Source of the DNA: Magnetospirillum sp.
GTDB taxonomy: Bacteria; Pseudomonadota; Alphaproteobacteria; CACIAM-22H2
Length of the DNA: 64,000 bases
NCBI GenBank assembly: GCA_027532905.1
Contig: JAPZUA010000001.1
Coordinates: 1,111,950-1,175,949 of the forward strand
Reading direction: 5' to 3'
A model generated the notes under the pieces. The model was not told where the DNA came from. It saw only the letters and a program-made list of their open reading frames with translations, and made no database searches. Shown in pieces: positions 8,598 to 55,926 of this stretch. The translations under genes and the position numbers were made by a program. Every line of letters starts with the position of its first letter. The stretch's first letter is position 1.

Positions 8598-8631
8598 AAG
8601 GGCTTAGCTGGAAACAGCTAGGCCCTTTTTC
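8598..8631 (+). terminator. Rho-independent terminator of tRNA-Ala
   Basis: The hairpin aagggcttagctg-gaaa-cagctaggccctt is followed by TTTTT. Confidence 0.8.
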
Positions 8632-8813
8632 ATTTGATTCTACCACCGTTCTACCACGGCAATGGCAAGATATGGCACTTTACGGCATGGCATTGAGCCC
8701 AAAAATCTTCACTCTCGAGAGTCGGGGCGGCTCTCAGCGACCTGCAAAACGTTCATTTTATACCTTGGCGAAATTTTCTCTGCGCATACATTGATTTTTG
8801 AAGGAGATTGATT

Positions 8814-19132: not shown

Positions 19133-19171
19133 GTGTACCAAAATTTGTCCTAGAGTCTATTTTTGGAACAC
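19133..19171. promoter_or_regulatory. Inverted motif pair GTGTACCAAAAT...TTTTTGGAACAC (copy B of a 47-bp repeat)
   Basis: The 47-bp block is about 85% identical to copy A at 18635-18680. It lies upstream of the 19232 gene. Confidence 0.5.
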
Positions 19172-19231
19172 ACTACATTCGTTCTCTTAGACGTTTTTTT
19201 ATCAGCGGTTCCGCGATTGGATGCCTCGCAG

Positions 19232-22589: not shown

Positions 22590-23576
22590 TCAGAAGCCTT
22601 GCGTGCCGCGGAGAACTTCGCTGCTGATATTGAGCACTAAGTCGTCGATGGCAGGCTGCTCGCGGATCAGCCCCTGCTCCCAACAATAGCGGACAAGCGT
22701 CTTCAGGTTCTCGCGATTACGTGGCGTTAACCCGTACTCCCAAGGGTCCTGCCCCATCAGTTCCACTTGCTCTTCCCAGGCGCTCGTCCCCCAGGCTAGA
22801 GGCGCCACGCGTGGATTGCGAAAGCGCTCGTAACCCAGACGTTTGGACTCATTGAACGCAAAAGCAACGTTCGGCGCAATCCAGGGGTTCTTCTTGACCA
22901 AGTCCTCACGGATCAAGACCAAATGCATGATCGGAAAAATCCCAGTGCGTTTGAAATAGTCTTCTTCTGCGGATTTGAAGTCAGGGATCAAGCGCCGGAT
23001 GTTCTTGTTGCCGGCAAGAAACGAGGGCGGATAACCGGGCGAGATCAGAGCGTCGATCTCTCCGGTCACAAGCATTCGGTCCAAGGACCCCGGTGATGCA
23101 CGTTCGATCCGGAGCCCTGCCTGAGGCGTAAACGGAATGTCTTCGTCTCGGTCAGTGAGCCAAGTGATGTCCTGGTGCGGAACGCCGTACTCGTCGCCGA
23201 GAATACCGCGTACCCAGACCGCAGCGGCTGGTTGGAAGCCGCTCTCCACGCCAACTCTGCGCCCCGCCAATTCCGACGGCTTTTCGATTCCTTTGTTCGG
23301 ATTCACGAAAATGAAACCATGCCGAAAGCGGCGATGCGGAAATACAGGGAGCGCCACGTAGGGATGGCCCCTTTCACGGGCCATGAAGTAGGCGCACGCG
23401 TTCAACTCGCCAATATCGCATTCCGCATTTCGCGCCAGCCGCCATTGCCGATCCCGCGCGGTCGACGCCGCGAGCACCGTCAGATCCAAACCTTCCGGTC
23501 GAACGACACCGTCAATGAGCGGTCGCGTGATCTCGTAGTCGCCACAGCTCAAAGACACTTGAATGTTTTTCGGCAT
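22590..23576 (-). CDS. PhtD-like (4,5-dihydroxyphthalate decarboxylase family) protein, paralog 2
   Basis: Paralog of the 19232-20221 gene. Confidence 0.65.
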   Translation of the reverse strand: MPKNIQVSLSCGDYEITRPLIDGVVRPEGLDLTVLAASTARDRQWRLARNAECDIGELNACAYFMARERGHPYVALPVFPHRRFRHGFIFVNPNKGIEKPSELAGRRVGVESGFQPAAAVWVRGILGDEYGVPHQDITWLTDRDEDIPFTPQAGLRIERASPGSLDRMLVTGEIDALISPGYPPSFLAGNKNIRRLIPDFKSAEEDYFKRTGIFPIMHLVLIREDLVKKNPWIAPNVAFAFNESKRLGYERFRNPRVAPLAWGTSAWEEQVELMGQDPWEYGLTPRNRENLKTLVRYCWEQGLIREQPAIDDLVLNISSEVLRGTQGF

Positions 23577-34601: not shown

Positions 34602-35657
34602 TTATGCAAGCGCCTTGCTCCGTCGTGCGTTCTCCTCCCACCGGCGACGAACTTCGGCGGATTGATAGTCTTGCGTCTTCGACATCTTCGGCCAATCCGA
34701 TACGTCGAGCCAAAGCCGCAGTAGATGACGGCGGCGCTCTTTCTCCGGGTGGTCCTCGAATGCAGCACGCCCGTGCAGGACCGTGCGATTGTTCAGAAAC
34801 TGCATGTCGCCAGGCTCAAGATACATGTTCGTCATTATTTCAGGATGATTTGCAAACGCGTTGAGCGCCTGAAGTGCAGCCTCCTCCTTCGGACTAAGCT
34901 GCACCAATCCGGACAAAACCGGACGCCGAATATAGCCGGGCACATAAAAGCAATTCAGCCATCCATCCGCATGCTCGTAAATCGGAACGCGGTGCCGACT
35001 GACCAGATCGTAACCCGCGTCTTTTGCATCGCCGTCCGTACCGCGAAGGAAGAAGCCTTCGTATAGAACCTCCAAGAGCATTGGGCAGTGGTCGAGAAGC
35101 AGATTATGTACCGCATGGGCGCTCGCCAACCGCGACGCGCCACCGGTTTTCGCCATTGTAATGCTTAACATCGAGACAATATCGGAAGCGTCAGTATGAG
35201 CGAGCTGAGCGCCGGGTGAGTGGTATCCACGGCGGCGGAATATGTCGGGCTGCTCGTCGCTCAAATCGATTATGTCGCCCAAGCGGTCGCCTTCGTGGCT
35301 TTGCGCTTCGGCGCGCCCGAAATGAGCGCCGATCCCCCAATAGATGCGCTTCAGATCATCCAGACCGTACTTCTGCGCCGGCAATCCCCGAATAACGATA
35401 AAACCCCGCCCGGTCGCGATCTCTTTTCGAATTTCGTCAAGATCGCCATTAAGCGATACGAGCGGAAAATCGTCGGATCGCACCGCATCCCAAGCAAGTC
35501 CGCGCGCCTTGACCCGCGCAAGACAATCATCGATCTCTTGAAGGGTTCGCTCCGGCAGACGGAACACCCAATCGCTTCGATCGGACAATTCCTTGGCTGT
35601 CCAAACGGAGCGGCCTTGAGGGCGATACCGCGCAAACGAGGTTGTGCCTTGGTTCAT
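34602..35657 (-). CDS. TauD/TfdA-like Fe(II)/2OG dioxygenase family protein
   Basis: The clavaminate-synthase-like fold is present, with HTD...H motifs. Confidence 0.65.
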   Translation of the reverse strand: MNQGTTSFARYRPQGRSVWTAKELSDRSDWVFRLPERTLQEIDDCLARVKARGLAWDAVRSDDFPLVSLNGDLDEIRKEIATGRGFIVIRGLPAQKYGLDDLKRIYWGIGAHFGRAEAQSHEGDRLGDIIDLSDEQPDIFRRRGYHSPGAQLAHTDASDIVSMLSITMAKTGGASRLASAHAVHNLLLDHCPMLLEVLYEGFFLRGTDGDAKDAGYDLVSRHRVPIYEHADGWLNCFYVPGYIRRPVLSGLVQLSPKEEAALQALNAFANHPEIMTNMYLEPGDMQFLNNRTVLHGRAAFEDHPEKERRRHLLRLWLDVSDWPKMSKTQDYQSAEVRRRWEENARRSKALA

Positions 35658-38720: not shown

Positions 38721-39512
38721 TCAAGTGCCGTGCGAGACGTCGTCCTCGACGCGCTTCGGACGGCTTGGCGCCAAAACGCGCTTTCGCCGAACCGTGCTGT
38801 TTTCGTGTTTTCCCGCCGCTTCGTCCTCAAGTCTTGTAAGCAGCGCGATCGCGTAGCGCGCCGAACGCTCGACCATTGATTTGCAACGCTGAACGATATC
38901 ATCGACATCGCGGCGTATGGCCGCATCGACGACTCCTCGCATAATTGAAAGCGTTTCGCTCTCGCGTTCGGCTCCCGAAGCCTCTGCGGTTAACGCCCGC
39001 AAATAGTTTATTCGAGCGCGCAAGTTGCGAAGTATCGAACGGGCCACCTCGTTGTCGGCGCCACGCATCAAGATGTCGAAAAAACGATCAATCGACTGGA
39101 CGTAGTCAGTGACCGGCTTGCGATTGATATCCCGCTCGATCGCGTCGCACGCGAGTTTCAGCGCCTCGACGTCTTTTGCGCTTGCTCGCTGAACGAACAG
39201 GCCCGCCGACGCTGTCTCGAGGGCAAGTCGAACCTCGTATATTTGGCGAGCTTCCGACGGCGAAAGAGCAGCGACCATGAGTCCCCGACGCGGCCCACGT
39301 TCGACCAATCCTTCAGCCTCAAGCTGACGAAGCGCTTCTCGGATCGACGTCCTGCTGACGCCGGTTTCGACACACAGCATTCGCTCCGTGAGCTTTTGGC
39401 CCGGTTTGTAGTGGAGCCGCAGAATAGCGTTGCGGATCTTGACGGTGGCACGTTCCCGCAAATTGGGGGCATTTCGTCCAACCCGCAGCGATTGCTGTCC
39501 GCCACGCGCCAT
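38721..39512 (-). CDS. GntR-family transcriptional regulator (FadR/FCD subfamily)
   Basis: An N-terminal winged HTH (LTERMLCVETGVSRTSIREAL) is followed by an FCD domain. Confidence 0.8.
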   Translation of the reverse strand: MARGGQQSLRVGRNAPNLRERATVKIRNAILRLHYKPGQKLTERMLCVETGVSRTSIREALRQLEAEGLVERGPRRGLMVAALSPSEARQIYEVRLALETASAGLFVQRASAKDVEALKLACDAIERDINRKPVTDYVQSIDRFFDILMRGADNEVARSILRNLRARINYLRALTAEASGAERESETLSIMRGVVDAAIRRDVDDIVQRCKSMVERSARYAIALLTRLEDEAAGKHENSTVRRKRVLAPSRPKRVEDDVSHGT

Positions 39513-39595: not shown

Positions 39596-40201
39596 CTATC
39601 CTTGGCGGCGGCCGAATAGCCTCGAAACATAAGCCAATATCACCTTCCACAACAGTCTGCCTGCCGACAGGCTCTCTACCGGTGGCGGCGTTGATGGGGC
39701 GGATACCGAATTTGTCGCCGGGTCTTGTGTCGAAACCGGACTAGTGTTTTCGGCGTCGATCTGGTTCCGCAAACGGCCAGCGAACTCCGATGTAATCTGA
39801 TTGGCGAGTTCTTTTATAACACCGGAAGCTCGGCCATACTGAGCAACGGCTCCAGTTAGCGATAGGGTCGTCTTGATCGTGACAATCGAGCCCGATGGCG
39901 ACGGGTCTAGTCCAAACTGGATGTTAGCATTGGCCGCTCCGCGCCCCTTAGCATCGTTGCCGCGCGCGGTCGCCAAGGCTCGGTGGTTCACCGCATCCAT
40001 TTCAGTGAATTTTACGGTACCGGCGAAGTTCATTGTCACCGGGCCAAGGCGAACCGTAACCTTCCCTTTGAAGGTCTTATCGTCGACAATCTCGACCAGT
40101 TCTGCGCCCGGCATACACTTGACCATGTTCGGCACATCGAGCAACACAGCCCAAGCGCGGTCGGGAGGAAGCGGCACTTCAAACGAGTTTTCAAATTCCA
40201 T
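39596..40201 (-). CDS. CoxG-family SRPBCC protein (carbon monoxide dehydrogenase subunit G-like)
   Basis: The SRPBCC/CoxG fold. CoxG-like proteins usually accompany Mo-hydroxylases. Confidence 0.7.
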   Translation of the reverse strand: MEFENSFEVPLPPDRAWAVLLDVPNMVKCMPGAELVEIVDDKTFKGKVTVRLGPVTMNFAGTVKFTEMDAVNHRALATARGNDAKGRGAANANIQFGLDPSPSGSIVTIKTTLSLTGAVAQYGRASGVIKELANQITSEFAGRLRNQIDAENTSPVSTQDPATNSVSAPSTPPPVESLSAGRLLWKVILAYVSRLFGRRQG

Positions 40202-40563: not shown

Positions 40564-41502
40564 ATGCTAAGTTTGATCGTTCGGCGACTTCTGCTCGGCA
40601 TTCCAAACATCATTCTCATTTCAGTACTGCTGTTTTTTACGATTCTTGGCGCTTTGGGCAGCCCCGCAACCCTCATGCTCGGCCTCGATGCAACGCCGGA
40701 ACGGATACTTGAGCTTGAGCGCCAGTACGGTTTCGACCGTCCACTCTACGTGCAGTATATCGATTGGGTATGGAAGGCTCTGAACGGAGACTTCGGTCGG
40801 TCCTATGCGACGAACCAACGTGTCGTCGATGCGCTTTTGCCCCGTATCCTGCCCAGCGTCGAACTGGCACTTCTCGGCATGATCGTCGCAGTTACCACAT
40901 CCGTCGTATTCAGCAGCATTACTGTCGGCCGCAGAATCGTCCAGCCTGTTGTCAACATTCTCAGTCTCATTGGGATCACAGTGCCAAACTTTATGCTTGG
41001 CATCACACTGACATACATTTTCTCCGTCGTATTGGGCATCCTGCCGACATCCGGGTGGGCCCCCTGGTCTGCAGGCATTTTCGAGCATCTGCTCCATCTG
41101 ATCCTGCCTGTGCTGACAGTCGCCGCGTACTACTTCGCCTCGTTTGGCCTCGTGTACCGCGCTGAGTATCGCGCCACATCGCGCCGGCTTTACATTCAGG
41201 TCGCGCGCGCAAAGGGGCTTTCGGAAAGCGCCGTGTCTTTCAGGCATATCCTGCCGAACTCAATTCTTCCTGTAATCACTCAGGTCGGCAGCAGTCTTGG
41301 GCAACTTGCGGCCGGCGCGCTCGTCGCAGAGACGGTCTTCTCCATTCCCGGCGTCGGCACGCTTTTCACAAGCGCGCTCCTATCTCGTGATTTTCCGGTG
41401 TTCCTCGCGATCGGAATGATCACGATTGTCAGCGTGGTTGTCATGAATCTTTTGGCCGACTTGCTTTATGTCGCCGCCAATCCCCAAATCCGGCTCGATT
41501 AG
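40564..41502 (+). CDS. ABC transporter permease (DppB/OppB-like)
   Basis: The polytopic profile matches family-5 peptide/nickel permeases. Confidence 0.85.
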   Translation: MLSLIVRRLLLGIPNIILISVLLFFTILGALGSPATLMLGLDATPERILELERQYGFDRPLYVQYIDWVWKALNGDFGRSYATNQRVVDALLPRILPSVELALLGMIVAVTTSVVFSSITVGRRIVQPVVNILSLIGITVPNFMLGITLTYIFSVVLGILPTSGWAPWSAGIFEHLLHLILPVLTVAAYYFASFGLVYRAEYRATSRRLYIQVARAKGLSESAVSFRHILPNSILPVITQVGSSLGQLAAGALVAETVFSIPGVGTLFTSALLSRDFPVFLAIGMITIVSVVVMNLLADLLYVAANPQIRLD

Positions 41503-41504
41503 CC

Positions 41505-42281
41505 ATGAAGAACCGGAACGCGTTGATTGGATTTGTGATCGTATCCATCGTCACTACGCTGGCGATCGCGGCGCCTTGGATCGCACCCTACGATCCCGCG
41601 ACGACGAGTATCCGCTTGTTCGAGGGCCCGTCTGCGGACCATTGGCTTGGGACGGACCAGCTCGGACGCGATATCTTCAGTCGCATTCTTTTTGGCGCGC
41701 GCGTATCGCTGATAATCGGTGCCGGCTCGGCAGTGGTTGCAGGTATCATCGGCGTGCCCATCGGGCTTGCCGCCGGCTATCTCGGTCGCACTGTCGACAT
41801 GATGGCCATGCAGTTCATCAATCTTTTCATTGCCCTACCGGGGCTTGTTCTCGCACTCATTATCATCACGATGACGGGCGCGACGATGCTCAACATCGTA
41901 TTGGTCCTCGGATTCGTAGCCTGGCCGGGCGTCGCCCGACTGGCTCGCGGGCAGACCTTTGCGATCCGAGAGTCGGTGTATGTCGAGGCTGCACGCGCCG
42001 TCGGGGGCGGCACGGCATGGATCATCATCCGCCACATCTGGCCCAACATCTTTCGCCTCGTAGCAGTCCAGCTTGCGACAGTCGTGGCATTCGCAATATT
42101 CACGTCTTCGAGCCTCAGCTTCCTCGGTTTGGGCGTGCCGCCGCCGACCGCCGACTGGGGCGGAATGGTCCGCAGCGGTGTCGACTATCTGTCCGTCAAT
42201 CCGTACATGAGCCTTGCCCCTGGCTTCTCGGTCGCGATCACTATTTTCGGCTTCTACATGCTGGGCTATCGAGAGGAATAG
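41505..42281 (+). CDS. ABC transporter permease (DppC/OppC-like)
   Basis: Family similarity and operon position. Confidence 0.85.
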   Translation: MKNRNALIGFVIVSIVTTLAIAAPWIAPYDPATTSIRLFEGPSADHWLGTDQLGRDIFSRILFGARVSLIIGAGSAVVAGIIGVPIGLAAGYLGRTVDMMAMQFINLFIALPGLVLALIIITMTGATMLNIVLVLGFVAWPGVARLARGQTFAIRESVYVEAARAVGGGTAWIIIRHIWPNIFRLVAVQLATVVAFAIFTSSSLSFLGLGVPPPTADWGGMVRSGVDYLSVNPYMSLAPGFSVAITIFGFYMLGYREE

Positions 42282-42284
42282 CGA

Positions 42285-43295
42285 ATGGCCCGGAACTCCC
42301 TCCTTGAAGTCGAAAACGTTTCGGTGTCTTTCAAATCGGCGCAAGGACCCATTCGCGCCGTCCGTGACGTCAGCTTTCGGATAAATCCCGGCGAGATCGT
42401 CGCGCTTGTCGGCGAGTCGGGGTCGGGGAAATCCACGACTGGCCTGGCTACAATGCAGTTGATCCCCTCGGCAACGGTATCGGGCCGCATATGTCTTACG
42501 CGAAAAGACGGGACCAAAGCCGATCTGGTGTCATTGAGCGAATCCGACATTCGCAGGGTCCGCGGCAACGAAGTGGCGATGATTTTCCAGGAGCCGATGT
42601 CGTCGCTCGATCCGGTCTTCACGATCGGAACGCAGATGTGCGAAGCGGCGAGGGTCCACCAGCGCCTCTCCTATCGAGAAGCCTATGCCGCATCGATAAA
42701 GGCCCTTGAAGCGGTCGGCATGCCTGATCCCGAAAAATGCATGGAGACCTACCAGCACAAGCTGTCGGGCGGCATGCGGCAGCGCGTCATGATCGCGATG
42801 GCCTTGAGCAGCAAGCCCTCTCTTCTCATCGCCGACGAACCGACGACCGCGCTCGATGTCACCATCCAAGCCCAGATCGTCGAGTACCTGAAGCGTATCC
42901 AGAAACAGACCGGAATGGCGATTCTGTTCATCACTCACAATCTCGGGCTCGTTGCCGAAATCGCCGATCGCGCCATCGTTATGTATGCCGGGGAGATCGT
43001 CGAATCGGGCAGTGTGTCGGAACTGTTCACGCGCCCCCGGATGCCATACACCTCCGGTCTCTTGAAATCGTTGCCACGTCTTGGACGGAAGAAGACACTC
43101 GGCACGCCGATCGAGCCTATTCCCGGCAGCCTTCCGAGCCCTCTTGCGCTTCCAAGCGGCTGCAAGTTCCATCCTCGTTGCGGCCACTTCGTCGCCGGGG
43201 TCTGCGACACGGCCGTTCCCGAACTCGAATCCAGCGACCAGGCGCATCAGGTTCGCTGCGCCCGCTGGCGCGACATCGCGAGGACAGCGCAATGA
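42285..43295 (+). CDS. ABC transporter ATP-binding protein (DppD-like)
   Basis: Walker A (GESGSGKST), the signature LSGGMRQR, Walker B, and a C-terminal oligopeptide-ABC extension. Confidence 0.9.
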   Translation: MARNSLLEVENVSVSFKSAQGPIRAVRDVSFRINPGEIVALVGESGSGKSTTGLATMQLIPSATVSGRICLTRKDGTKADLVSLSESDIRRVRGNEVAMIFQEPMSSLDPVFTIGTQMCEAARVHQRLSYREAYAASIKALEAVGMPDPEKCMETYQHKLSGGMRQRVMIAMALSSKPSLLIADEPTTALDVTIQAQIVEYLKRIQKQTGMAILFITHNLGLVAEIADRAIVMYAGEIVESGSVSELFTRPRMPYTSGLLKSLPRLGRKKTLGTPIEPIPGSLPSPLALPSGCKFHPRCGHFVAGVCDTAVPELESSDQAHQVRCARWRDIARTAQ

Positions 43296-44293
43296 GTTCG
43301 GAAATGGCACCGCTTCTGCAGGTCGAAGGGCTGAGGAAATGGTTCGACATCACGCGCGGCGTATTCGGCCGCAAGGTCGGCCAGGTGAAGGCCGTCGACG
43401 ACGTTTCTTTCACGGTCCGCTCGCGTGAGGTTTTAGGATTAGCGGGCGAGTCGGGGTCGGGAAAAACCACGATTGGCCGTTCCGTCCTTCGCCTCGTCGA
43501 GCCAAGCGCGGGCCGTGTTGTTTTCGACGGCACTGACGTGACCTCTCTGAACACAGCGGACCTCCGCCGATTTCGGCGCAGGATGCAGATTATCTTTCAG
43601 GATCCGCTCGCGGCCCTGAACCCGCAAATGACGATCGAGGAGGTTTTAAGCGAACCCTTGATCGTCCAAGGTATCGGCCGCAGCGACGCTGATCGACGCA
43701 ACCGAGCCGTGGAACTGCTCGATAGTGTGTCGCTTTCAAGCGACTATCTTAAGCGCCGTCCCGGGGAAATGTCCGGCGGTCAACGGCAGAGAATCGTCAT
43801 CGCCCGCGCGCTCGCCGTGAACCCGGAGTTCATCGTCGCGGACGAGCCGGTTTCGGCGCTCGACGTATCGATCCAGGCACAAATCATCGCGCTTTTGATC
43901 GAGCTGAAGGGTCGCCTTGGTTTGTCCATGCTCTTCATTTCCCACGATCTCGCGGCAATGGAATACATCTCCGACCGAATTGCGGTTCTTTATCTCGGTC
44001 GCGTCATGGAGATCGGTCCAAGTTCCGAGGTCTGCGGCAATTTCAAGCATCCCTATACGGAGATGCTGATCTCGGCCGTCCCGCAACCCGAGCCCGGATA
44101 CCAGCGCAAGATTTTTCCGGCAGGCGAGATTCCGAGCGCTGCGTCTCCGCCCAGCGGCTGCGTATTTCGGACTCGCTGCAGCTACGCACGGCCTGAATGC
44201 GCGCAAATTGTTCCGCAGTTGCGGAAAGTGGCCGAAGATCATTACACCGCATGTATCCGCGATGATTTATCCCTCTCGAGGGTGCTGCTATGA
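43292..44293 (+). CDS. ABC transporter ATP-binding protein (DppF-like)
   Basis: Walker A (GESGSGKTT) and the signature MSGGQRQR. The ATG at 43292 overlaps the previous stop (ATGA). The 518-aa track ORF is over-extended. Confidence 0.9.
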   Translation: MSSEMAPLLQVEGLRKWFDITRGVFGRKVGQVKAVDDVSFTVRSREVLGLAGESGSGKTTIGRSVLRLVEPSAGRVVFDGTDVTSLNTADLRRFRRRMQIIFQDPLAALNPQMTIEEVLSEPLIVQGIGRSDADRRNRAVELLDSVSLSSDYLKRRPGEMSGGQRQRIVIARALAVNPEFIVADEPVSALDVSIQAQIIALLIELKGRLGLSMLFISHDLAAMEYISDRIAVLYLGRVMEIGPSSEVCGNFKHPYTEMLISAVPQPEPGYQRKIFPAGEIPSAASPPSGCVFRTRCSYARPECAQIVPQLRKVAEDHYTACIRDDLSLSRVLL

Positions 44294-44391: not shown

Positions 44392-45252
44392 ATGAAACCG
44401 GCGCCATTCACGCATCACAACCCGAAGACCTTGGCCGAAGCGATTTCACTGCTTTCGGTCCTCGCGCCCGAGGACGGACGAATCATTGCTGGTGGTCAGA
44501 CTCTTGTCCCGATGATGGCGTTTCGCTTGGCCCGTCCCCGGCATGTCATCGACATCAATGGAATTACAGAGCTTGGGAAAATCACGATCGAGAACGGCAC
44601 AATGACGATCGGCGCCACCGTGCGCCACAATGCCTTTGAAAAGCCGTATCCCGGGAGCGGGAAGCTTGGAAGCCTTCTTGCGAACGTCGTGCAAAACATT
44701 GCGCATGCGCCCATTCGGTCCCGTGGCACTTTCTGCGGTAGCATTGCAAATTCGGACCCCGCGTCGGAATGGTGTCTCGTATCGACAACTGCTGGCGCGG
44801 AGATCGTATTGGCAAGCGTACGCGGCGAGCGAATCGTTCCAGCACATGATTTTTATACCGGCATAATGGCCAATGCGCTCGCAGAAGACGAAATTATCAC
44901 CAAGGTCCGTATCCCGCTTCTTTCGGACGATACGCGGTTTGGATTTCACGAGGTAAGCCGAAGAAAAGGCGATTTTGCAATGGCAGCTTGCCTCGCGATC
45001 TATCGTCTGTCGAACGGCAAAGCACTCGAACCAAGAATCGGACTTGGCGGTGTCCAAGCAATTCCGAAACGCGTCACCGCGGCCGAAGAAGCTCTTCGCG
45101 GCGGCGACATTGGGGGCGAGCTGTTCCGTCAAACCGCATCCGTCGCGATGCGCGCGATCGATCCGCTCGATGACGAGGAGTTTCCGGAGCAATATCGTCG
45201 GGAGCTGGCGCAGGCGGTGGTCGCGCGCGCATTGGAAAGCAGCGTCGCATGA
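44392..45252 (+). CDS. Mo-hydroxylase FAD-binding subunit (CoxM/XdhB-like), copy 1
   Basis: The FAD-binding-5 domain is present (AGGQTLVPMM, GT.GGS). Confidence 0.85.
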   Translation: MKPAPFTHHNPKTLAEAISLLSVLAPEDGRIIAGGQTLVPMMAFRLARPRHVIDINGITELGKITIENGTMTIGATVRHNAFEKPYPGSGKLGSLLANVVQNIAHAPIRSRGTFCGSIANSDPASEWCLVSTTAGAEIVLASVRGERIVPAHDFYTGIMANALAEDEIITKVRIPLLSDDTRFGFHEVSRRKGDFAMAACLAIYRLSNGKALEPRIGLGGVQAIPKRVTAAEEALRGGDIGGELFRQTASVAMRAIDPLDDEEFPEQYRRELAQAVVARALESSVA

Positions 45253-45737
45253 CAGACGAAGTGGATATCAGCCTATCCGTCAACGGACGGACCTATCGCT
45301 TTAAGGCGGAGCCCCGGCGAACCCTGGCGGACGCGCTGAGAGAAGATTGCGGACTGACCGGGACACATCTCGGCTGTGAACACGGCGTCTGCGGAACGTG
45401 CACCGTCAGCATGGACGGACAGCCAGTCCGCGCGTGTCTGATGTTTGCTGTCCAAGCGCAAGGGGCAAAGATCGTTACCGTCGAAGGCCTCGCATCGGGA
45501 TCGGAGCTGCATCCGCTTCAAAAGGCTTTCATCGAACATCACGCTCTTCAGTGCGGCTTTTGTACGCCTGGATTTCTGATGCTCGCATGGACCGAGCTCG
45601 CAAAGAATCCGAACCCAAGCGATGAAGAGCTGACTGACATTCTGTCGTCCAATCTATGTCGCTGCACAGGATACAAGAACATCTTTTCCGCGGTAAAAGC
45701 AGCGGCCAATGAAATGCGAAATGGAGCGCCAAAATGA
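45249..45737 (+). CDS. (2Fe-2S)-binding subunit (CoxS-like), copy 1
   Basis: Two [2Fe-2S] cysteine motifs are present (CEHGVCGTC and CGFCTPG). Confidence 0.9.
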   Translation: MTDEVDISLSVNGRTYRFKAEPRRTLADALREDCGLTGTHLGCEHGVCGTCTVSMDGQPVRACLMFAVQAQGAKIVTVEGLASGSELHPLQKAFIEHHALQCGFCTPGFLMLAWTELAKNPNPSDEELTDILSSNLCRCTGYKNIFSAVKAAANEMRNGAPK

Positions 45738-48088
45738 GTATCCAGGCCGCCCCATCGCAGCGAAAGGAGACCAAAGTCTTCGGAAAACGCGTGCCGCGTC
45801 TCGAAGATCTTCCCCTCGTCAAAGGGCTCGGACGGTTCGTCGCGGACCTCTCGTTTCCCCATCAGCTTTACATGCGCGTCGTTCGCTCGCCGATCGCACA
45901 CGGGACGATCACACGGATCGACGCTGACGAGGCGCGTAAGGCGCCAGGCGTGGTCGCGATTTGGACGCACGCCGACATCGCATCATACCCTCTGATCGAC
46001 TTTAGAGATCCATCCGCGGAAGCGTTGATGCCATACCGGCAACCGCTGCTCGCCAAGGACCGTGTCCGATATGTCGGCGAGCCGATTGCCGTGGTGTTTG
46101 CCGAGTCCGCCTACCTTGCCGAAGACGCAGCAGACTTGGTCTTTGCCGAAATCGACGAGCTTCCTCCGCATATGGATGCTCAAGCGGACTGCGCCAGCTT
46201 CGCGCCGGGCATTTCGACCGAACCGATCGTATTGAAGCAAGGATTCGGCGATCTACCGGGCGCGTTCGCCAACGCCCACTGCGTCGTCGAACTGGAACTC
46301 TCGATCGGGCGCCACTCGGGCGTTCCAATGGAATGCCGGGGTGCGATCGGGCGCTACGATGCAGCGCAAGACGTTCTCGAGCTGTGGGGAGCGGCGAAGG
46401 TGCCGTTGCGCAACCGAGAAACGATGGCGCGTTACTTCCAGCGTAGCTCGGCATCCGTGCAGCTCTACGAACTACATGTCGGCGGCGGATTCGGCGTTCG
46501 CGGCGAGTTGTACCCCGAAGATTTCCTCGTATGCGCGGCCAGCATGACACTTGGCCGACCGGTAAAGTGGATCGAGGACCGCCGGGAACATCTCATGGCG
46601 ACAAACCAGTCGCGCGAACAATATCACCGCGTCCGAGCGGCTGTCGATCAGACCGGCCGCATTCTGGCGCTCAGCGACGTGTTTTTCCACGATCAAGGCG
46701 CTTACGTCAGAACCCATGGCGCGAGGGTCGCGGATCTGACGATCGGTATGCTACCGGGCCCGTACCACGTGCCTGTCTATCAAGGCATCGGCCATTTTCG
46801 CCTGACGAACAAAACGCCCGCTGCCACCTATCGATCGCCTGGGCGTTACGAGGGCTCTTTCGTTCGCGAGCGTCTTGTTGATGCGATTGCAGCAAAGTTG
46901 GGGCTCGATCGGATCGAGGTTCGCCGACGCAATCTGATCCCAAGCGCCGACATGCCCTACACACGGCAACTCGGCGCGCTCGGAACCGAGGTTGTGCTCG
47001 ATTCCGGCGATTACGCCGGCCTCCTGCAAACGTCGATCGATCGCTTTGGGTGGGACGAATTGCAGAAGACGATCCGCGTGCGTCGAGCACAGGGTGAATT
47101 CGTCGGCGCCGGCATCGCGATGTTCCTCGAAAAAAGCGGGATGGGACCGTCCGACAGCGTCACGGTCAGCGTCGATCCCATGGGTTTCGTCGAAGTCGTC
47201 ACAGGTGGAGCTTCTGTCGGGCAAGGCTTCGAAACAGCCATGGCGCAGATCTGCGCCGAAACGCTCGGCGTCGACTATCGACGCATCCGGGTCGTACATG
47301 GACAAACGGACCGAATTCGCTTCGGAATTGGGGCCCATGCGTCGCGCGCCACGGTTATGACCGGAAACGCCGTCCACGCAGCCGCAACGAATGTTCGCGA
47401 TCTTGCCCTCAAGCATGCATCCGTCTTGTTGCAGGCACCGGCTGAACTGCTCGACATCGTCGATGGCATCGTCGCCCGAAAGGGCAGCCCAAGTGGGCCC
47501 ACGATTTCCCTCGGCCAGTTGTCGCGGCAATTGTCGCCCGGCCCTGAAGCGATCGCACGCGGGACAAACGGTCTCTCCTGCGAAGGATGGTTCTATGCCG
47601 ACCACATGACCTACCCCTATGGAGTCCACTTGGCGCTTGTACGAGTGGACGGGGAAACAGGTCAGGTCTTTGTCGAGCGCTACATGGTCGCGAGCGATGT
47701 CGGCCGAGCGGTCAACCCAATGATTGTCGAGGGCCAGGTTGTAGGCGGCGTCGCGCAGGGGCTCGGCGGCGCTCTTTACGAACAGTTCCGCTACAGCGAT
47801 ACCGGACAGCCGCTCTCACTGAATTTTGCGGAGTATCTGATACCAACCGCGCATGAGGTGCCCGACGTCGAAGTCATCGTCGCGGAGGACGCACCAAGCC
47901 CCCTCAATCCACTCGGGATCAAGGGCGCTGGCGAGGGCGGCTGCACGGGCGTCGGGGCAGCCATCGCCTCTGCTGTCGACGACGCGATCGGCATCCCGGG
48001 GGCTATCACATCCCTTCCCATCACGCCCGCGAAGCTGAAAGCGCTGCTTAAGAACAGACGCGACAATTCGAACGGCGACAGCACATGA
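45734..48088 (+). CDS. Xanthine dehydrogenase-family molybdopterin-binding subunit (large subunit 3)
   Basis: The 784-aa product has Mo-hydroxylase large-subunit motifs. Confidence 0.85.
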   Translation: MSIQAAPSQRKETKVFGKRVPRLEDLPLVKGLGRFVADLSFPHQLYMRVVRSPIAHGTITRIDADEARKAPGVVAIWTHADIASYPLIDFRDPSAEALMPYRQPLLAKDRVRYVGEPIAVVFAESAYLAEDAADLVFAEIDELPPHMDAQADCASFAPGISTEPIVLKQGFGDLPGAFANAHCVVELELSIGRHSGVPMECRGAIGRYDAAQDVLELWGAAKVPLRNRETMARYFQRSSASVQLYELHVGGGFGVRGELYPEDFLVCAASMTLGRPVKWIEDRREHLMATNQSREQYHRVRAAVDQTGRILALSDVFFHDQGAYVRTHGARVADLTIGMLPGPYHVPVYQGIGHFRLTNKTPAATYRSPGRYEGSFVRERLVDAIAAKLGLDRIEVRRRNLIPSADMPYTRQLGALGTEVVLDSGDYAGLLQTSIDRFGWDELQKTIRVRRAQGEFVGAGIAMFLEKSGMGPSDSVTVSVDPMGFVEVVTGGASVGQGFETAMAQICAETLGVDYRRIRVVHGQTDRIRFGIGAHASRATVMTGNAVHAAATNVRDLALKHASVLLQAPAELLDIVDGIVARKGSPSGPTISLGQLSRQLSPGPEAIARGTNGLSCEGWFYADHMTYPYGVHLALVRVDGETGQVFVERYMVASDVGRAVNPMIVEGQVVGGVAQGLGGALYEQFRYSDTGQPLSLNFAEYLIPTAHEVPDVEVIVAEDAPSPLNPLGIKGAGEGGCTGVGAAIASAVDDAIGIPGAITSLPITPAKLKALLKNRRDNSNGDST

Positions 48089-48960
48089 AAGCAGCTCCTT
48101 TTCAGTATCACGATCCCACCTCGATAGACGAGGCGATCGACCTACTTGGCAAACTGGAGAACGCAAAAGTTCTTGCCGGCGGCCAGTCGTTGATGGCGAT
48201 GCTCAACATGAGATACGCCCAACCCGATCACGTCGTGGACATCAATCGCATCGCAGATCTTTCGTATATTCGGGAAGCAAACGGCGCACTCGTTATCGGC
48301 GCCATGACCCGCCAGCGCGATCTGGAGTTTTCTGATCTCGTTCGCAGGACCTGTCCCATACTCCACGAAGCGATCCAGCATGTCGGCCACCGCCAGACGC
48401 GCAATCGCGGAACCGTCGGCGGATCGCTTTGCCACCTCGATCCGTCCGCCGAACTCGCAGCGATGGCTGCGCTGCACAACGCAACGCTGACAGTGGCAGG
48501 TCCAAAGGGCTCTCGGGAGCTTGCCTTCAAAGAGTTCGCGCTCGGCTTTATGACGCCGGCGCTGGAAGTCGACGAAATTCTGACGGCGATTCGGATCGAA
48601 TTCTGGCCTAAGGGCCACGGCTACGGGTTTCTCGAATTCGCCCGTCGGCACGGAGATTTCGCCGTCGCGTCGGCTGGGGCGCTGATCACGCTCGACGCAA
48701 AAGGCTTAATCGACCGGGCCAGCCTCGTGATTGGCGGCGTCGGCTCGGTACCTACGCGAGTAGAAAGCGCCGAGCAGATCTTGCTGGGCACGCAGCCGAC
48801 CCAGGCCGTTTTCGAGGAAGCTGCGCGCGCCTGCAAATCGATCGAAGCCCTCGACGATATCCATGCACCGGCCTCCTATCGATTGCATCTGGCGGAAACC
48901 CTGGCGCGACGAGCTCTTGCCAAAGCCCTCCTCAGCCTGAGATCGGACGGAGAACAATGA
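48085..48960 (+). CDS. Mo-hydroxylase FAD-binding subunit (CoxM-like), copy 2
   Basis: Paralog of 44392-45252 (AGGQSLMAML, GT.GGSL). Confidence 0.85.
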   Translation: MKAAPFQYHDPTSIDEAIDLLGKLENAKVLAGGQSLMAMLNMRYAQPDHVVDINRIADLSYIREANGALVIGAMTRQRDLEFSDLVRRTCPILHEAIQHVGHRQTRNRGTVGGSLCHLDPSAELAAMAALHNATLTVAGPKGSRELAFKEFALGFMTPALEVDEILTAIRIEFWPKGHGYGFLEFARRHGDFAVASAGALITLDAKGLIDRASLVIGGVGSVPTRVESAEQILLGTQPTQAVFEEAARACKSIEALDDIHAPASYRLHLAETLARRALAKALLSLRSDGEQ

Positions 48961-49445
48961 CGATGGATTCCCGCGACATTGTCGTTACGGTGAATGGCAT
49001 CCGCCACGAGGCAACGGTGAAAACGCGCGTCACCCTCGCGGACTTTCTGCGTCACCAACTCGAGCTTACGGGCACACATCTCGGATGCGAGCACGGCGTC
49101 TGCGGCGCATGCACCGTCCTTGTTGATGGCCGTACGGCACGCTCTTGTCTGATGCTGGCAGTTCAGGCGCACGGCCACGAAATCAGAACTGTCGAAGGTA
49201 TAGCTCCGAACGCAAAGGAACTGCATCCGCTGCAGACGGCTTTCCAGAAACATCATGGACTGCAATGCGGCTTCTGCACGCCCGGAATGCTGACGACTTT
49301 GATCGAGTTCCTCCACGACAATCCAGATCCGACGGAAGCCGAAGTAAGAATAGCGATATCCGGCAATCTCTGTCGCTGCACCGGCTATCAGGGAATCGTC
49401 GATGCCGCCCTCGATGCCGCAAAAACAATGCGCAACAGCACATGA
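48957..49445 (+). CDS. (2Fe-2S)-binding subunit (CoxS-like), copy 2
   Basis: Paralog of 45249-45737 (CEHGVCGAC and CGFCTPG). Confidence 0.9.
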   Translation: MTMDSRDIVVTVNGIRHEATVKTRVTLADFLRHQLELTGTHLGCEHGVCGACTVLVDGRTARSCLMLAVQAHGHEIRTVEGIAPNAKELHPLQTAFQKHHGLQCGFCTPGMLTTLIEFLHDNPDPTEAEVRIAISGNLCRCTGYQGIVDAALDAAKTMRNST

Positions 49446-49461: not shown

Positions 49462-49641
49462 ATGACCGAAAAGTCGCTTCAGGATATGGCGGAAGCCGCC
49501 GGACTGGGATTGGCGTTCCAGTTGTTTCCCGAGGACATTCGAGCGGCTGTGAAGCAAGTCGCAAATCAGCGCGCCGCACTTCGGGACGATATCTCGGCGG
49601 CGGAGGAGCCATGGCCTCCCATGACTATTCCCGGGAAATGA
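49462..49641 (+). CDS. AtzG-like (DUF4089-type) small protein, putative amidase small subunit
   Basis: A 59-aa helical peptide. Its stop overlaps the start of the amidase-signature gene (ATGA). Its size and position resemble the AtzG partner of AtzE-type amidases. Confidence 0.45.
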   Translation: MTEKSLQDMAEAAGLGLAFQLFPEDIRAAVKQVANQRAALRDDISAAEEPWPPMTIPGK

Positions 49642-51026
49642 GCGAAGAACTGCACTGGCTTGGAATTGCCGAATTGCACGCGGCTTTCGGGGCGCGCAGA
49701 ACCTCGCCGGTCGAAGTGGTCGAGGCCTTGTTGCGGCGCATCGAGCGCCTTGACGAAAAACTTCACGTATTCGTGACGCTGGATGCCGAGAACGCCCGCA
49801 AAGCCGCGCGCGCCGCGGAGCAGGATATCGAGGCGGGAAGACACAAAGGACCGCTGCACGGCATCCCGATTGCGATCAAGGATGTTATCGATGCTGCAGG
49901 CCTTCCGACGACGTGCCAATCGAAGATCTTCGAAGGCAACATACCGTCTGACGACGCGACGTCGGTCGCCCAGTTGCGTCGAGCCGGCGCCATCGTCCTC
50001 GGAAAGGTCGCGACCTACGAGTTCGCCCTAGGCGGGCCGAGTTTCGACCTTCCCTATCCACCGGCACGGAATCCGTGGCATGTCGATCACAGTACTGGGG
50101 GGTCCTCCTCAGGTTCGGGCGTTGGTTTGGCAGCCGGTCTCTTTCCCGGCGCGCTTGGCACCGACACCGCCGGCTCCGTCCGCAATCCGGCCAGCGCTTG
50201 CGGGATCGTTGGCCTAAAACCGACCTACGGCCGCGTTTCGCGTCAAGGCGTGTTCCCGCTGGCTTTTACGATGGATCATGTCGGCCCGATGGCACGGCGC
50301 GTCGCCGACATTGAACACCTGCTTGCCGCCATGGCCGATCGCAACGCCCCTTATATCGACGCCGCGACAGACGCTGCTGTGCCGCACAGACCCGCCGATC
50401 TTCGTGGAAAGCGCATCGGGTTCGTTCGGCATTTTCACGAGCGCGACATGCCGGCAGACAATGAAGTCGCGGCCGCTCTTGAGTTGGCGGCGCGGGTCTT
50501 CGAAGAGGCCGGTGCCGAAATAGTTAACGTATCGCTTCCGCCGCTCGACGCCTTCGCCGCCGTCAACCGCATCATTCTGCAGGCGGAGGCCTGGGCGGTG
50601 CATGCGAGTTGGCTTCGGACGCGCCCTCAAGACTACGCGAAGCTCACGCGCCAGCGTCTTCTCGGCGGGGCATTCCTGAGCGCGGAGGATTACGTTCAGG
50701 CGCAGCGGAGACGGCGGCGCATGATTGCGGCAATGGAAGATGTATTTCGGGACGTCGATTTGCTCTTATGTGCGAGTGCCATGGATCCGCCGTGCCGGAT
50801 TGACGATGCGGAAGCTGTTGCACGGACCTACCCACGTCAGGCGCGCACGCCGTTCAGCGTGACGGGGCATCCAGCTCTCGCGATGATGTCCGGGCTCTCT
50901 TCGGCTTCATTGCCGCTGTCTTTGCAGCTTGCAGGGCGCTATTGGGACGAAGCCAGCGTGCTGTCGGCAGCCGCTGTGTTCGAGCGCGAAACCCAGTTCT
51001 ACCGGCATCGCCCGACGCTTGAATAA
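49638..51026 (+). CDS. Amidase-signature family amidase (AtzE/GatA-like)
   Basis: A GGSSSGS-containing amidase signature, a Lys-cisSer-Ser catalytic-region pattern, and the motif GIPIAIKD. Confidence 0.85.
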   Translation: MSEELHWLGIAELHAAFGARRTSPVEVVEALLRRIERLDEKLHVFVTLDAENARKAARAAEQDIEAGRHKGPLHGIPIAIKDVIDAAGLPTTCQSKIFEGNIPSDDATSVAQLRRAGAIVLGKVATYEFALGGPSFDLPYPPARNPWHVDHSTGGSSSGSGVGLAAGLFPGALGTDTAGSVRNPASACGIVGLKPTYGRVSRQGVFPLAFTMDHVGPMARRVADIEHLLAAMADRNAPYIDAATDAAVPHRPADLRGKRIGFVRHFHERDMPADNEVAAALELAARVFEEAGAEIVNVSLPPLDAFAAVNRIILQAEAWAVHASWLRTRPQDYAKLTRQRLLGGAFLSAEDYVQAQRRRRRMIAAMEDVFRDVDLLLCASAMDPPCRIDDAEAVARTYPRQARTPFSVTGHPALAMMSGLSSASLPLSLQLAGRYWDEASVLSAAAVFERETQFYRHRPTLE

Positions 51027-53363: not shown

Positions 53364-53376
53364 GTGTTCCATTTTT
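53364..53376 (-). promoter_or_regulatory. Motif AAAAATGGAACAC (minus-strand orientation)
   Basis: The plus strand reads GTGTTCCATTTTT. It sits in the divergent deacetylase / TcuA-like intergenic region. Confidence 0.4.
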
Positions 53377-53462
53377 CGTACGATATGAAATACTTGCTGA
53401 CGAGTTTTTGGACAACAGCTTCTAAAGGGCAATTGAACAGCGTGACGGACCCATCGGAGCGC

Positions 53463-54842
53463 ATGTACGACGCGCTGATCGTCGGCGGCGGTAACGCAGC
53501 GATGTGTGCTGCCATCAGTGCGCGGCGCGGCGGTGCGAGCGTGCTCGTGCTCGAGGCAGCGCCAAAATTCTATCGCGGCGGCAACACGCGGCACACACGC
53601 AACATGCGCTGCGCCCACGATTCCGCGACGGAGACACTGACCGGTCCCTATACGGAAGCGGAATTCTGGACCGATCTTCATCAGGTCACGGGCGGTCAGA
53701 CCGACGAAGAACTCGCCAAGCACATGATCGCCGAGTCCAAGGAGATGCTCGGCTGGATCGTCGAGCAGGGTGTGCGCTTCCAGCCGTCGCTCGGCGGAAC
53801 CCTCAGCCTAGGCCGAACCAATTCGTTTTTCTTAGGCGGCGGCCGGGCAATGCTTAACGCGCTCTACCGCACGGCCGAGTCGCTCGGCGTCGAAGTTCTT
53901 TACGACGCGGAGGTCGTCGGCGCCGACATACGCGACGGGATGTTCCTGGCCGCTAGCGTCAAACGCGGTTCCAAGATCAAAAGGATTCGCGCCAAAACGT
54001 TGGTCGCGGCGGCTGGCGGATTCGAGGCGAACATCGACTGGCTCAAGCAATACTGGGGCGATCCGGCCGACAATTTCCTGATCCGCGGGACGCCCTACAA
54101 TCGCGGCACCGTATTGCGCATACTGCTCGATGCAGGCGCTCATCCGATCGGCGATCCCACGCAATGCCATGCAGTCGCGATCGACGCGCGCGCGCCCAAA
54201 TTTGACGGCGGCATCATCACGCGGCTCGACTGCGTCGTCTTCGGCATCGTAGTGAACAAGCACGCGCAGCGCTTCGACGACGAAGGTGCCGATTTCTGGC
54301 CGAAGCGTTATGCGGTTTGGGGCCGCCTCGTGGCCGCCCAGCCGGACCAGATCGCCTACATCGTTTTCGACAAAAGCGCTTCGACGCTGTTCATGCCGTC
54401 GCTGTTTCCGGCCATCGAGGGGCAGACGATCGCCGAACTTGCGGCCAAACTCGGCCTCGATACCGCAGCGCTCGAACAAACCGTCGCGCGCTTCAATGCG
54501 GCCGTGCGCCCCGGCACGTTCGACTCGACCGTCTTGGACGATTGCCGCACCGAGGGTCTTGTGCCGCCGAAGAGCCATTGGGCGCGTGCACTGGCGACAC
54601 CGCCCTTCTACGCCTATCCCGTTCGACCCGGCATTACCTTCACCTATCTCGGCACAAAGGTCGACAAGACCGCCCGCATCCTGATGCAGGACGGCAAACC
54701 GTCGGCGAACATGTTTGCGGCCGGCGAGATCATGGCCGGGAACGTGCTCGGCAAAGGTTATGCCGCGGGTATTGGTATGACGATTGGAAGCGTGTTCGGG
54801 CGTATCGCGGGCCGGGAGGCCGCAAAACGTGCAAGCAACTGA
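53463..54842 (+). CDS. FAD-dependent oxidoreductase, TcuA-like (tricarballylate dehydrogenase family)
   Basis: The FAD motif ALIVGGGNAAMCAAI is present, with TcuA/FAD_binding_2 family similarity. The start was reset to the ATG at 53463. Confidence 0.75.
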   Translation: MYDALIVGGGNAAMCAAISARRGGASVLVLEAAPKFYRGGNTRHTRNMRCAHDSATETLTGPYTEAEFWTDLHQVTGGQTDEELAKHMIAESKEMLGWIVEQGVRFQPSLGGTLSLGRTNSFFLGGGRAMLNALYRTAESLGVEVLYDAEVVGADIRDGMFLAASVKRGSKIKRIRAKTLVAAAGGFEANIDWLKQYWGDPADNFLIRGTPYNRGTVLRILLDAGAHPIGDPTQCHAVAIDARAPKFDGGIITRLDCVVFGIVVNKHAQRFDDEGADFWPKRYAVWGRLVAAQPDQIAYIVFDKSASTLFMPSLFPAIEGQTIAELAAKLGLDTAALEQTVARFNAAVRPGTFDSTVLDDCRTEGLVPPKSHWARALATPPFYAYPVRPGITFTYLGTKVDKTARILMQDGKPSANMFAAGEIMAGNVLGKGYAAGIGMTIGSVFGRIAGREAAKRASN

Positions 54843-55926
54843 AACGACGTCGCCTGCCCTGATCGAGGCCGACCGCCTGATGGTAGTCTGCAATTCCTGC
54901 CGCTATTGCGAAGGCATTTGCGCCGTGTTCCCGGCGATGGAGATGCGGCGCAGCTTCACGGCTGCGGATCTGCGCTACTTTGCCAATCTCTGCCACGGCT
55001 GCGGCGCTTGCTACGACGATTGTCAGTTCTCACCACCGCACGAGTTCAACGTCAATGTGCCGAAAGTGATGGCGCAGGTGCGCGCCGAATCCTACGCGCA
55101 CTACGCATGGCCGCGTGCGGCCGCCAAGATTTTCGAGCATAACGGTTTGGCGGTGGCGCTTACTGCCGCACTGGGTGTTGCCGCTTTTGTGGCCGGTTTC
55201 GTTGCATGGACGGATCCAAGCGTGCTGTTCGGCACGCATACGGGACCGGGTGCGTTCTACCGGCTGATGCCCCACAATGCGATGGTGCTGCTGTTCGGCG
55301 CCGCGTTTTCGTATGCGTTGCTGGCGCTCGCGATGGGTCTGCGGAATTTCTGGCGCGACGGCAAGGGGGCCGAGGCGGCGGCCTACGCGGCGGCCGGGCA
55401 CGATGCGGCGACGCTACGCTATCTCGACGGCGGCGGTGCCGGCTGCCAGGACGGCGACGGGGCCGAAAGCGACAATCGGCGCCTGTTCCACCATCTGACA
55501 CTCTACGGCTTCTTGCTGTGCCTCGCCTCGACCACCACCGCGACGCTCTACCACTACGTCCTCGGCCGCGAAGCGCCCTATCCTTGGTACGACGTGCCGG
55601 TCGTGCTCGGAACCTTGGGCGGGCTTGGCCTGCTCGTGGGCCCGATCGGGCTGATGCGCGAGAAGGCCAAGCGCGACCCGGCCACAAAAGCGACTGGGCT
55701 CGTAGGCATGGAAACGGCGTTTGTTGCGATGCTGTTTTTGACGAGCCTCAGCGGGCTTGCCCTTCTGGTTCTGCGCGAGACCCCGGCGATGGGGCTGCTC
55801 CTCGCCTTCCATTTGGGCGTCGTGTTCGCGCTGTTCTTGACGTTGCCCTACGGCAAGTTCGTGCATGGGCTCTATCGCTATCTCGCCCTCGTGCGCTATG
55901 CGCAGGAGCGAAAATCGGGCCCTTGA
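54829..55926 (+). CDS. TcuB-like FeS membrane protein
   Basis: CNSCRYCEGICAVFPAM and CHGCGACYDDC cysteine clusters are followed by a polytopic membrane domain. A GTG at 54829 has a GGGAGG ribosome-binding site and overlaps the end of the TcuA-like gene. Confidence 0.7.
   Translation: MQATETTSPALIEADRLMVVCNSCRYCEGICAVFPAMEMRRSFTAADLRYFANLCHGCGACYDDCQFSPPHEFNVNVPKVMAQVRAESYAHYAWPRAAAKIFEHNGLAVALTAALGVAAFVAGFVAWTDPSVLFGTHTGPGAFYRLMPHNAMVLLFGAAFSYALLALAMGLRNFWRDGKGAEAAAYAAAGHDAATLRYLDGGGAGCQDGDGAESDNRRLFHHLTLYGFLLCLASTTTATLYHYVLGREAPYPWYDVPVVLGTLGGLGLLVGPIGLMREKAKRDPATKATGLVGMETAFVAMLFLTSLSGLALLVLRETPAMGLLLAFHLGVVFALFLTLPYGKFVHGLYRYLALVRYAQERKSGP

Follow-up and report, generated by a model that had tools for sequence, protein, structure and literature searches.

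Gene content and organization of the locus

Which electron-transfer subunits serve which catalytic subunits in a region that encodes three molybdenum (Mo) hydroxylase catalytic subunits and two sets of partner proteins? This question is raised by a 64-kb stretch of the genome of a Magnetospirillum sp. (assembly GCA_027532905.1, contig JAPZUA010000001.1, positions 1,111,950–1,175,949), here referred to as the window. The Mo catalytic, FAD and 2Fe-2S subunits are designated L, M and S, respectively; the genes of a five-gene operon are named M1-S1-Lop-M2-S2, and two lone Mo subunit genes La and Lb. We consider it probable that three Mo hydroxylases are formed from the two M/S pairs: M1-S1-Lop would be self-contained, while M2-S2 would be the displaced partner of La, most likely also serving Lb in trans. 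The assignment of M2-S2 to La as its most likely displaced partner is based on a tally of gene orders, on trees, on distance correlations and on the conservation of the layout.

All five operon genes lie on the forward strand. M1 (44392–45252; 286 amino acids, aa) and M2 (48085–48960; 291 aa) encode FAD medium subunits with FAD_binding_5 and CO_deh_flav_C Pfam domains. S1 (45249–45737) and S2 (48957–49445), of 162 aa each, encode subunits with two [2Fe-2S] clusters (Fer2 and Fer2_2 domains), and Lop (45734–48088; 784 aa), whose predicted cognates are M1 and S1, encodes a molybdopterin catalytic subunit of a Kdh-like subtype. An alternative start of S2 at position 48963, at the M2/S2 junction, is used by the public gene call (160 aa). 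The open reading frames (ORFs) and their Pfam domains agree with the FAD-FeS-Mo-FAD-FeS order, with one L, two M and two S genes, described in the initial annotation of the window, and all four junctions are indeed 4-nt overlaps, each reading ATGA. That annotation also pictured the L gene as sandwiched between two pairs. This is correct as to position, but a more fitting description is that of a canonical M-S-L unit behind which the M-S part of a second such unit remains.

La (20221–22572, forward strand) and Lb (32171–34510 from an ATG, reverse strand; a TTG start at 34531 is possible) are located ~26 kb and ~14 kb from M2-S2, respectively. Three domains, Ald_Xan_dh_C, MoCoBD_1 and MoCoBD_2, extend over the full length of Lop, La and Lb (Pfam, E 1e-25 to 1e-78). 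Both lone genes are complete and, as had been noted before, have no M or S neighbours; a tblastn search with all seven proteins as queries revealed no further M, S or L copy within the 64-kb window. The two M subunits share 38% identity and the two S subunits 56%; Lop is 38% identical to both La and Lb, which share 50% identity with each other.

The exact Lop protein is present on one Logan contig, and M2 is 100% identical to a protein of a metagenome-assembled genome (MAG) labelled Telmatospirillum sp. (JADCGL010000017.1). Comparison of the window with the Telmatospirillum MAG, which is of the same species (L002), revealed synonymous divergence of 0.05–0.08 in M1, S1 and Lop, and of 0.01–0.03 in M2 and S2. 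The lower values may reflect recombination within the operon, or noise from few sites.

Assignment of the FAD/iron–sulfur pairs to catalytic subunits

The comparison of gene order covered loci around relatives of M2, 29 from genomes and 73 from metagenomes, together with the contexts of La, Lb and M2 homologs. The 39 loci that contain an M2-like gene (at least 45% identity) and a readable downstream region were treated as informative. The M-S pair is directly followed by an L gene of the La/Lb type in 24 of them, and a Lop-type L was found directly after S in none (0/39). Five loci are of the window type, with Lop directly upstream of M2-S2 and no L downstream, and ten carry an M-S pair without an adjacent L; in eight of these ten, from Xanthobacteraceae-type genomes, the lone pair diverges from an M1-UbiD-S1-Lop unit.

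Complete two-unit arrangements were also distinguished. Loci L009 and L010 contain one long operon, CoxG-M1-S1-Lop-TctC-Rieske alpha/beta-M2-S2-La, and in L048 the M1-S1-Lop and M2-S2-La units are divergent from each other. M2-S2-La occurs without Lop nearby in L011, L034, L052 and L066, S2 orthologs at 71–79% identity precede La-type L genes, and many loci have the order (CoxG-)M-S-L, in which the L belongs to the wider La/Lb superclade. The window operon, M1-S1-Lop-M2-S2-small ORF-amidase, with its ABC transporter, CoxG and GntR genes, has counterparts of the same layout in Tagaea (L003; M2 identity 82%), in a MAG of the Rhodospirillales (L037/L038; 86%) and in L041.

In five Xanthobacteraceae-type loci (L004–L007 and L040, at ~7400–8900) a UbiD-family decarboxylase gene is inserted between M1 and S1 of the Lop unit, and an M2-S2 pair without an adjacent L, followed by a helix-turn-helix (HTH) regulator gene, is transcribed divergently.

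Neighbour-joining (NJ) trees with 100 bootstraps were constructed from a sample chosen by similarity to M2. Members of the M1 clade (bootstrap 99) go with L subunits of the Lop clade (bootstrap 100) in every case. The window M2 falls within a clade of M subunits that precede L subunits of the La clade (bootstrap 100), in line with the co-evolution of the second pair with a lone L for which a test was proposed in the initial annotation. The Lb clade likewise has a bootstrap of 100, and the S tree has the same shape as the M tree, with weaker support. Pairwise distances were correlated over 18 adjacent M-S-L triplets. M1 distances correlate with those of Lop (0.84) and not with those of La (−0.35) or Lb (−0.48), and the values for S1 are 0.96, 0.01 and −0.11, respectively. 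The pattern is reversed for M2 (Lop −0.35, La 0.87, Lb 0.90) and S2 (Lop −0.17, La 0.90, Lb 0.88). Judged from these correlations and the trees, M1-S1-Lop is one co-evolving unit in the canonical coxMSL order, and the evolutionary affiliation of M2-S2 is with the La/Lb lineage and, most specifically, with La. A division of the operon into M1-S1 and an L-M-S unit, Lop-M2-S2 (as in L036), was rejected, because M1/S1 remain upstream of Lop orthologs and the genes that follow M2/S2 orthologs are L genes of the La/Lb type.

The ATGA overlap by which M2 is translationally coupled to Lop could also be taken to mean that M2-S2 is an alternative electron-transfer module for Lop, yielding two isoforms (e.g. 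with different acceptors), and that La and Lb use M/S proteins encoded outside the window. L-M-S gene order does exist in the family (L036), in loci of the Xanthobacteraceae type, Lop units are accompanied by M2-S2 pairs that lack an adjacent L, and partners for La and Lb could lie beyond the 64 kb. We nevertheless regard this explanation as quite improbable, since every Lop ortholog recovered, except those of L019 and L050, carries its own M1/S1; the M2 and S2 distances do not follow those of Lop (r = −0.35 and −0.17); and in L011, L034 and L052 the M2/S2 orthologs form M-S-La units that have no Lop in their vicinity. Moreover, the genomic island described below, apparently inherited as a block, holds three L genes but two M/S pairs.

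Integrity of the subunits and selection

All Mo-site features are kept in the lone subunits. La contains the STQ and GGGFG motifs, the Arg loop TPVRGAGQ and the catalytic Glu in GVGEAG; Lb contains STQ, GGGFG, the Arg loop AATRGAGR and the catalytic Glu in GAAEGG. The same features are kept in their orthologs. Lop has GGGFG, the loop ATYRSPGRYEG and the catalytic Glu; its sequence at the position of the STQ motif is GAAK. Both S subunits possess all eight Cys residues, with the CX4CX2CXnC and CX2CXnCXC motifs intact. The FAD motifs AGGQSL and GTVGGS are present in M2; the M1 counterparts are AGGQTL and GTFCGS, in which one Gly of GTxGG is replaced by Cys.

Ratios of non-synonymous to synonymous substitution rates (dN/dS, NG86) calculated against orthologs are 0.07 for M2 (versus Tagaea), 0.06 for S2, 0.08–0.12 for La and 0.11 for Lb, and range from 0.04 to 0.2 across all seven genes; because dS is saturated in most comparisons (~1.4–2.1, undefined in two), these values are approximate and indicate strong constraint only. 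They point to purifying selection on La, Lb, M2 and S2.

These data bear on a further explanation, according to which La and Lb are decaying relics, or work without M/S, and M2-S2 is a redundant duplicate. It would account for the lack of M/S genes next to La or Lb. However, both proteins are full length with all Mo-site motifs, their dN/dS is 0.08–0.11 across orthologs 75–78% identical, several lineages have kept La and Lb as lone modules, and M2 and S2 are themselves under purifying selection. Moreover, no L subunit in the xanthine oxidase family is known to work without a 2x[2Fe-2S] partner. This explanation is disfavoured and, in our opinion, extremely improbable; inactivity of the lone L subunits through missing Mo-site residues, which had been named as an outcome that would undermine a shared pair, does not apply to La and Lb.

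Lone L genes and unequal subunit sets in other genomes

The isolation of La and Lb is not confined to the window but is seen again in related Rhodospirillales. La orthologs, 74–79% identical, occur in L031–L033 in the same module (MFS-TauD-HCDH / PhtD-La / PhtD paralog-hydrolase-TRAP-TAXI), with no M/S gene within 8–10 kb, and the PhtD-La gene pair is also present in L035. Lb orthologs, 75–87% identical, were found in contig P0123, which is syntenic with the window up to the start of the M1 gene, and in L035; the TauD-Lb pairing is kept in both, again with no M/S gene within 8–10 kb. More distant relatives do have adjacent M/S genes, i.e. L034 (M-S-La) and L036 (an Lb-like gene followed by M and S).

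Two loci contain a single M2-type M-S pair followed by La-type and Lop-type L genes in tandem (L019, 5843–11884, and L050). The gap between the tandem L genes of L019 is 19 nt, and no other M/S gene is present on its 14.4-kb contig. The M-S-La unit of L034 has a lone L of a third type nearby, and this third type also occurs beside lone M2-S2 pairs in Xanthobacteraceae loci. Taken together, the lone modules, the M-S-L-L contigs and L034 identify unequal numbers of L and M/S genes as a recurring feature of the subfamily.

Locus L039 (10001–16674, nanopore-derived) has the order UbiD-M-S-HTH, and 2.6 kb downstream an S gene followed by a frameshift-split L; a second M is absent. Either the subunit set is unequal here too, or the contig was misassembled.

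The M-S-La-Lop arrangement of L019 and L050 implies that M2-type pairs can also serve an L of the Lop type. It thereby favours a fully promiscuous pool, in which either M/S pair fits any of the three L subunits and pairing is set by expression level; the 56% identity of S1 and S2 is in keeping with this. The two M subunits are only 38% identical, the clade-to-clade co-divergence of M/S with the adjacent L argues for specificity, and two distinct pairs under purifying selection would be needless if they were interchangeable. Such a pool thus seems to us unlikely.

Proposed origin and assembly of the three enzymes

The pairing that we prefer, M1-S1 with Lop and M2-S2 with La and by default Lb, can be envisaged as follows. 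In the ancestral state, a single pathway cluster would have held two M-S-L units, as L009 does. M2-S2 would then, in the Telmatospirillum/Tagaea lineage, have been joined behind Lop and coupled translationally to its end, and La would have moved to a separate operon behind a PhtD-type decarboxylase gene, ~26 kb off. From the present operon, M1, S1, Lop, M2 and S2 would be produced at about the same level. One M/S pair would satisfy Lop and the other would assemble post-translationally with La and, by default, with Lb, so that two electron-transfer pairs would supply three enzymes of the (LMS)2 type. The predicted electron path leads from Mo via two [2Fe-2S] clusters to FAD and probably onward to quinone by way of a CoxG-like protein. 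Assembly of M2-S2 with La in trans is the most likely arrangement given the comparative data. Lb probably uses M2/S2 as well; it is assigned to this pair by default, solely because the island carries no third one.

Several points weigh against this reading. Among M/S-linked genes, the one most similar to Lb (L036, 65% identical) is followed by its own M/S pair in L-M-S order, which belongs to another branch of the M2 superclade, so the ancestral partner of Lb was not strictly M2/S2. The suggestion of the initial annotation that M2-S2 serves the lone L subunits is partly supported, in that the two pairs are non-equivalent and M2/S2 are orthologs of pairs that precede La/Lb-type L genes, but it needs to be qualified for Lb. 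The correlation test cannot separate La from Lb, and its loci, chosen by M2 similarity, are phylogenetically non-independent; the trees are of the NJ type only, with patchy bootstrap support inside the M2 and S2 superclades. Xanthobacteraceae M2-S2 pairs always sit beside M1-UbiD-S1-Lop, with no La, a placement that leaves room for a Lop-linked function of M2-S2 or for promiscuous pairing too. Further M/S genes may exist outside the 64-kb window, and the support for pairing La and Lb with M2-S2 is comparative, at the level of genes.

Enzyme family and predicted reactions

Homologs of the L subunits bear CO dehydrogenase (CODH) names in JGI annotations. The form-I CODH loop VAYRCSFR, with its Cu-binding Cys, is absent from Lop (ATYRSPGR), La (TPVRGAGQ) and Lb (AATRGAGR); the AYRCSFR loop of a distant Rokubacteria match (L021, 7481–9826) served as an internal control. 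The scores of the window L subunits against NCBIfam CODH and Qor-related models are all below the cut-offs. On the basis of the active-site loop and the sub-threshold NCBIfam scores a CODH identity was ruled out, and the names given to the homologs are thus unsupported. The best PDB match of both Lop (E 1.5e-172) and La (E 4e-139) is KdhL (7dqx). By these similarities, Lop, La and Lb are placed as ordinary members of the xanthine oxidase/Mo-hydroxylase family, closest to KdhLMS and QorMSL, and they probably hydroxylate aromatic or N-heterocyclic carboxylates.

Neighbouring genes and the genomic island

The first 8.4 kb of the window comprise housekeeping genes (aroA, cmk, csp) with ~66% guanine-plus-cytosine (GC) content, which falls to ~57% exactly at a tRNA-Ala gene (8514–8589). 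A 417-aa ORF (12274–13527, reverse strand) shows a weak match to tyrosine recombinases. Because of this match and the GC drop at the tRNA gene, the catabolic block that contains all three L genes and both M/S pairs looks like a tRNA-inserted genomic island. A megablast search of the operon against PLSDB plasmids yielded two short matches of 75–77% within the S genes only, and no close plasmid relative. A 969-aa ORF in the high-GC housekeeping part (2973–5882, forward strand) has no Pfam match at E up to 1e-4.

La is preceded by a gene of the 4,5-dihydroxyphthalate decarboxylase (PhtD) family (19163–20221, forward strand), a genuine PhtD homolog (PDB 9jp7, E 8e-100, residues 17–348 aligned) that shares one base with the La start in a TGATG junction, in agreement with the translational coupling of La to a PhtD-like gene reported initially. 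A second PhtD-family paralog (22590–23576, reverse strand; 40% identical to the first, E 1e-70) is convergent with La. Both La-flanking genes are barely seen by Pfam, with weak Phosphonate-bd/NMT1 matches only. Lb starts 91 nt downstream of a gene for a TauD-family dioxygenase (34602–35657, reverse strand; Pfam TauD, E 1.5e-30) on the same strand.

A GntR regulator gene (38721–39512) and a gene for a CoxG-like SRPBCC protein (39596–40201, reverse strand) lie divergently upstream of the operon. The match of the latter to PF06240 (E 1e-11) agrees with the CoxG-like gene recognized earlier at this position, and such genes recur beside M-S-L units elsewhere (L009, L010, L012, L034 and L054–56). 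By-eye inspection of the protein revealed a Pro/Ser-rich linker and a hydrophobic C-terminal stretch, LLWKVILAYVSRLF. An Opp/Dpp-type ABC transporter locus of two permease and two ATPase genes (40564–44293, forward strand; BPD_transp_1, ABC_tran and oligo_HPY domains) lies upstream of M1 in the same orientation, at a distance of 98 nt, and is syntenic in L003, L037, L038 and L041. In a promoter and terminator scan of the 39–53.5 kb region, sites were no more frequent than in shuffled sequence.

Directly after S2 there is a 59-aa ORF (49462–49641, forward strand) overlapping the start of a gene for an amidase-signature enzyme (49611–51026, forward strand; Pfam Amidase, E 2.6e-104), whose nearest relatives are AtzE and GatA. 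In L034, the amidase gene is preceded by a 60-aa ORF with which the small ORF shares 39% identity (E 5e-11). Searches for PDB matches, AtzG included, were negative even at E up to 10, so the idea that it may encode a GatC/AtzG-like small partner subunit of the amidase remains a guess. A TcuA/TcuB-like gene pair (53364–55926), encoding an FAD_binding_2 protein and the 4Fe-4S protein TcuB of tricarballylate utilization (E 3e-139), is located downstream of the operon and is syntenic in L037 and L035.

The pathway neighbours include PhtD-type decarboxylases, TauD and 2-oxoglutarate (2OG) oxygenases, the AtzE/GatA-like amidase, isochorismatase-like and PuuE-like hydrolases, and an acyl-CoA ligase with Zn-ADH-type reductases; in other lineages UbiD replaces PhtD. 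Judging from these neighbours, aromatic or N-heterocyclic carboxylates may undergo hydroxylation, decarboxylation and hydrolysis of the ring in succession.

Implications for Mo hydroxylase annotation

It is usually assumed in annotation that each Mo hydroxylase is encoded by one L, one M and one S gene, and lone "coxL-like" genes are then deemed uninterpretable or misnamed CO dehydrogenase. Across Alphaproteobacteria the departures from this scheme form a pattern: M-S-L-L operons, M-S pairs without an adjacent L, lone L genes accompanied by a decarboxylase or dioxygenase gene, and an island with three L genes and two M/S pairs. The window locus contains subunits of a known family in a new gene organization, split genes for one enzyme being already known. 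We propose tentatively, as a possibility that we hold with limited confidence, that an FAD/FeS pair can act as a portable electron-transfer cassette for several L subunits, giving combinatorial stable holoenzymes of a kind that recalls Rieske systems and, in the literature collection searched, is undescribed for this family.

If this is true, lone L genes, very frequent among soil Proteobacteria, can be read as active enzymes, and their heterologous expression, whether for biocatalysis or for the degradation of N-heterocycles and aromatic acids, would need the matching M-S pair from another locus. How specific the L-S and S-M interfaces are would become a tractable question, for which this locus offers a concrete set of three L subunits and two M/S pairs with clear pairing predictions.

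Comparison with known systems

The closest characterized enzyme is KdhLMS, the 6-hydroxypseudooxynicotine (ketone) dehydrogenase of Paenarthrobacter nicotinovorans pAO1 (7dqx), which has the same L/M/S heterotrimer architecture. Like KdhL, Lop has the YR(A/S)PGRYE loop and lacks the STQ Gln (KdhL reads WGTVHV). The KdhL residues Glu345 and Trp551, which take part in substrate binding, are not kept in Lop, where THG and His are found, so the substrate of Lop is expected to differ. On plasmid pAO1 the gene order is kdhL-pnh-kdhMS, with kdhL separated from kdhMS by pnh (PMC10494377). Split genes can therefore still give a working LMS enzyme. Each pAO1 L subunit has its own M/S pair (ndhLSM, kdhL/kdhMS), whereas three L subunits and two pairs are encoded in the window.

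Quinoline 2-oxidoreductase QorMSL (1t3q) and coxMSL have the same M-S-L gene order as M1-S1-Lop and, in other genomes, M2-S2-La. La and Lb share with Qor the equivalents of the Gln, the Arg-loop and the Glu. Unlike CODH, none of the three window L subunits has the form-I loop AYRCSFR.

A quinone-shuttle mechanism of CoxG has been shown for the Mo-CODH of Mycobacterium smegmatis (PMC12202499). The CoxG-like SRPBCC protein of the window may resemble M. smegmatis CoxG in its linker and hydrophobic C-terminus, CoxG-like genes are linked to M-S-L units in many related loci, and we propose that the window protein probably acts as a quinone shuttle for the FAD subunits. In contrast to the situation in Mo-CODH, a single CoxG-like gene would serve two FAD subunits, and it is divergent from the operon.

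Within the xanthine oxidase family, no direct precedent for lone L subunits or for one M-S pair serving several L subunits was found in the literature collection searched. Rieske multi-oxygenase systems, such as the bph/xyl systems of sphingomonads, share one ferredoxin/reductase set, whose members are soluble, transient carriers. The likeness to the window lies in the presence of several scattered catalytic components within a catabolic island together with fewer electron-transfer components. Unlike the Rieske enzymes with their carriers, xanthine oxidase family members form stable (LMS)2 complexes, so the sharing of M2-S2 would mean alternative stable assemblies.

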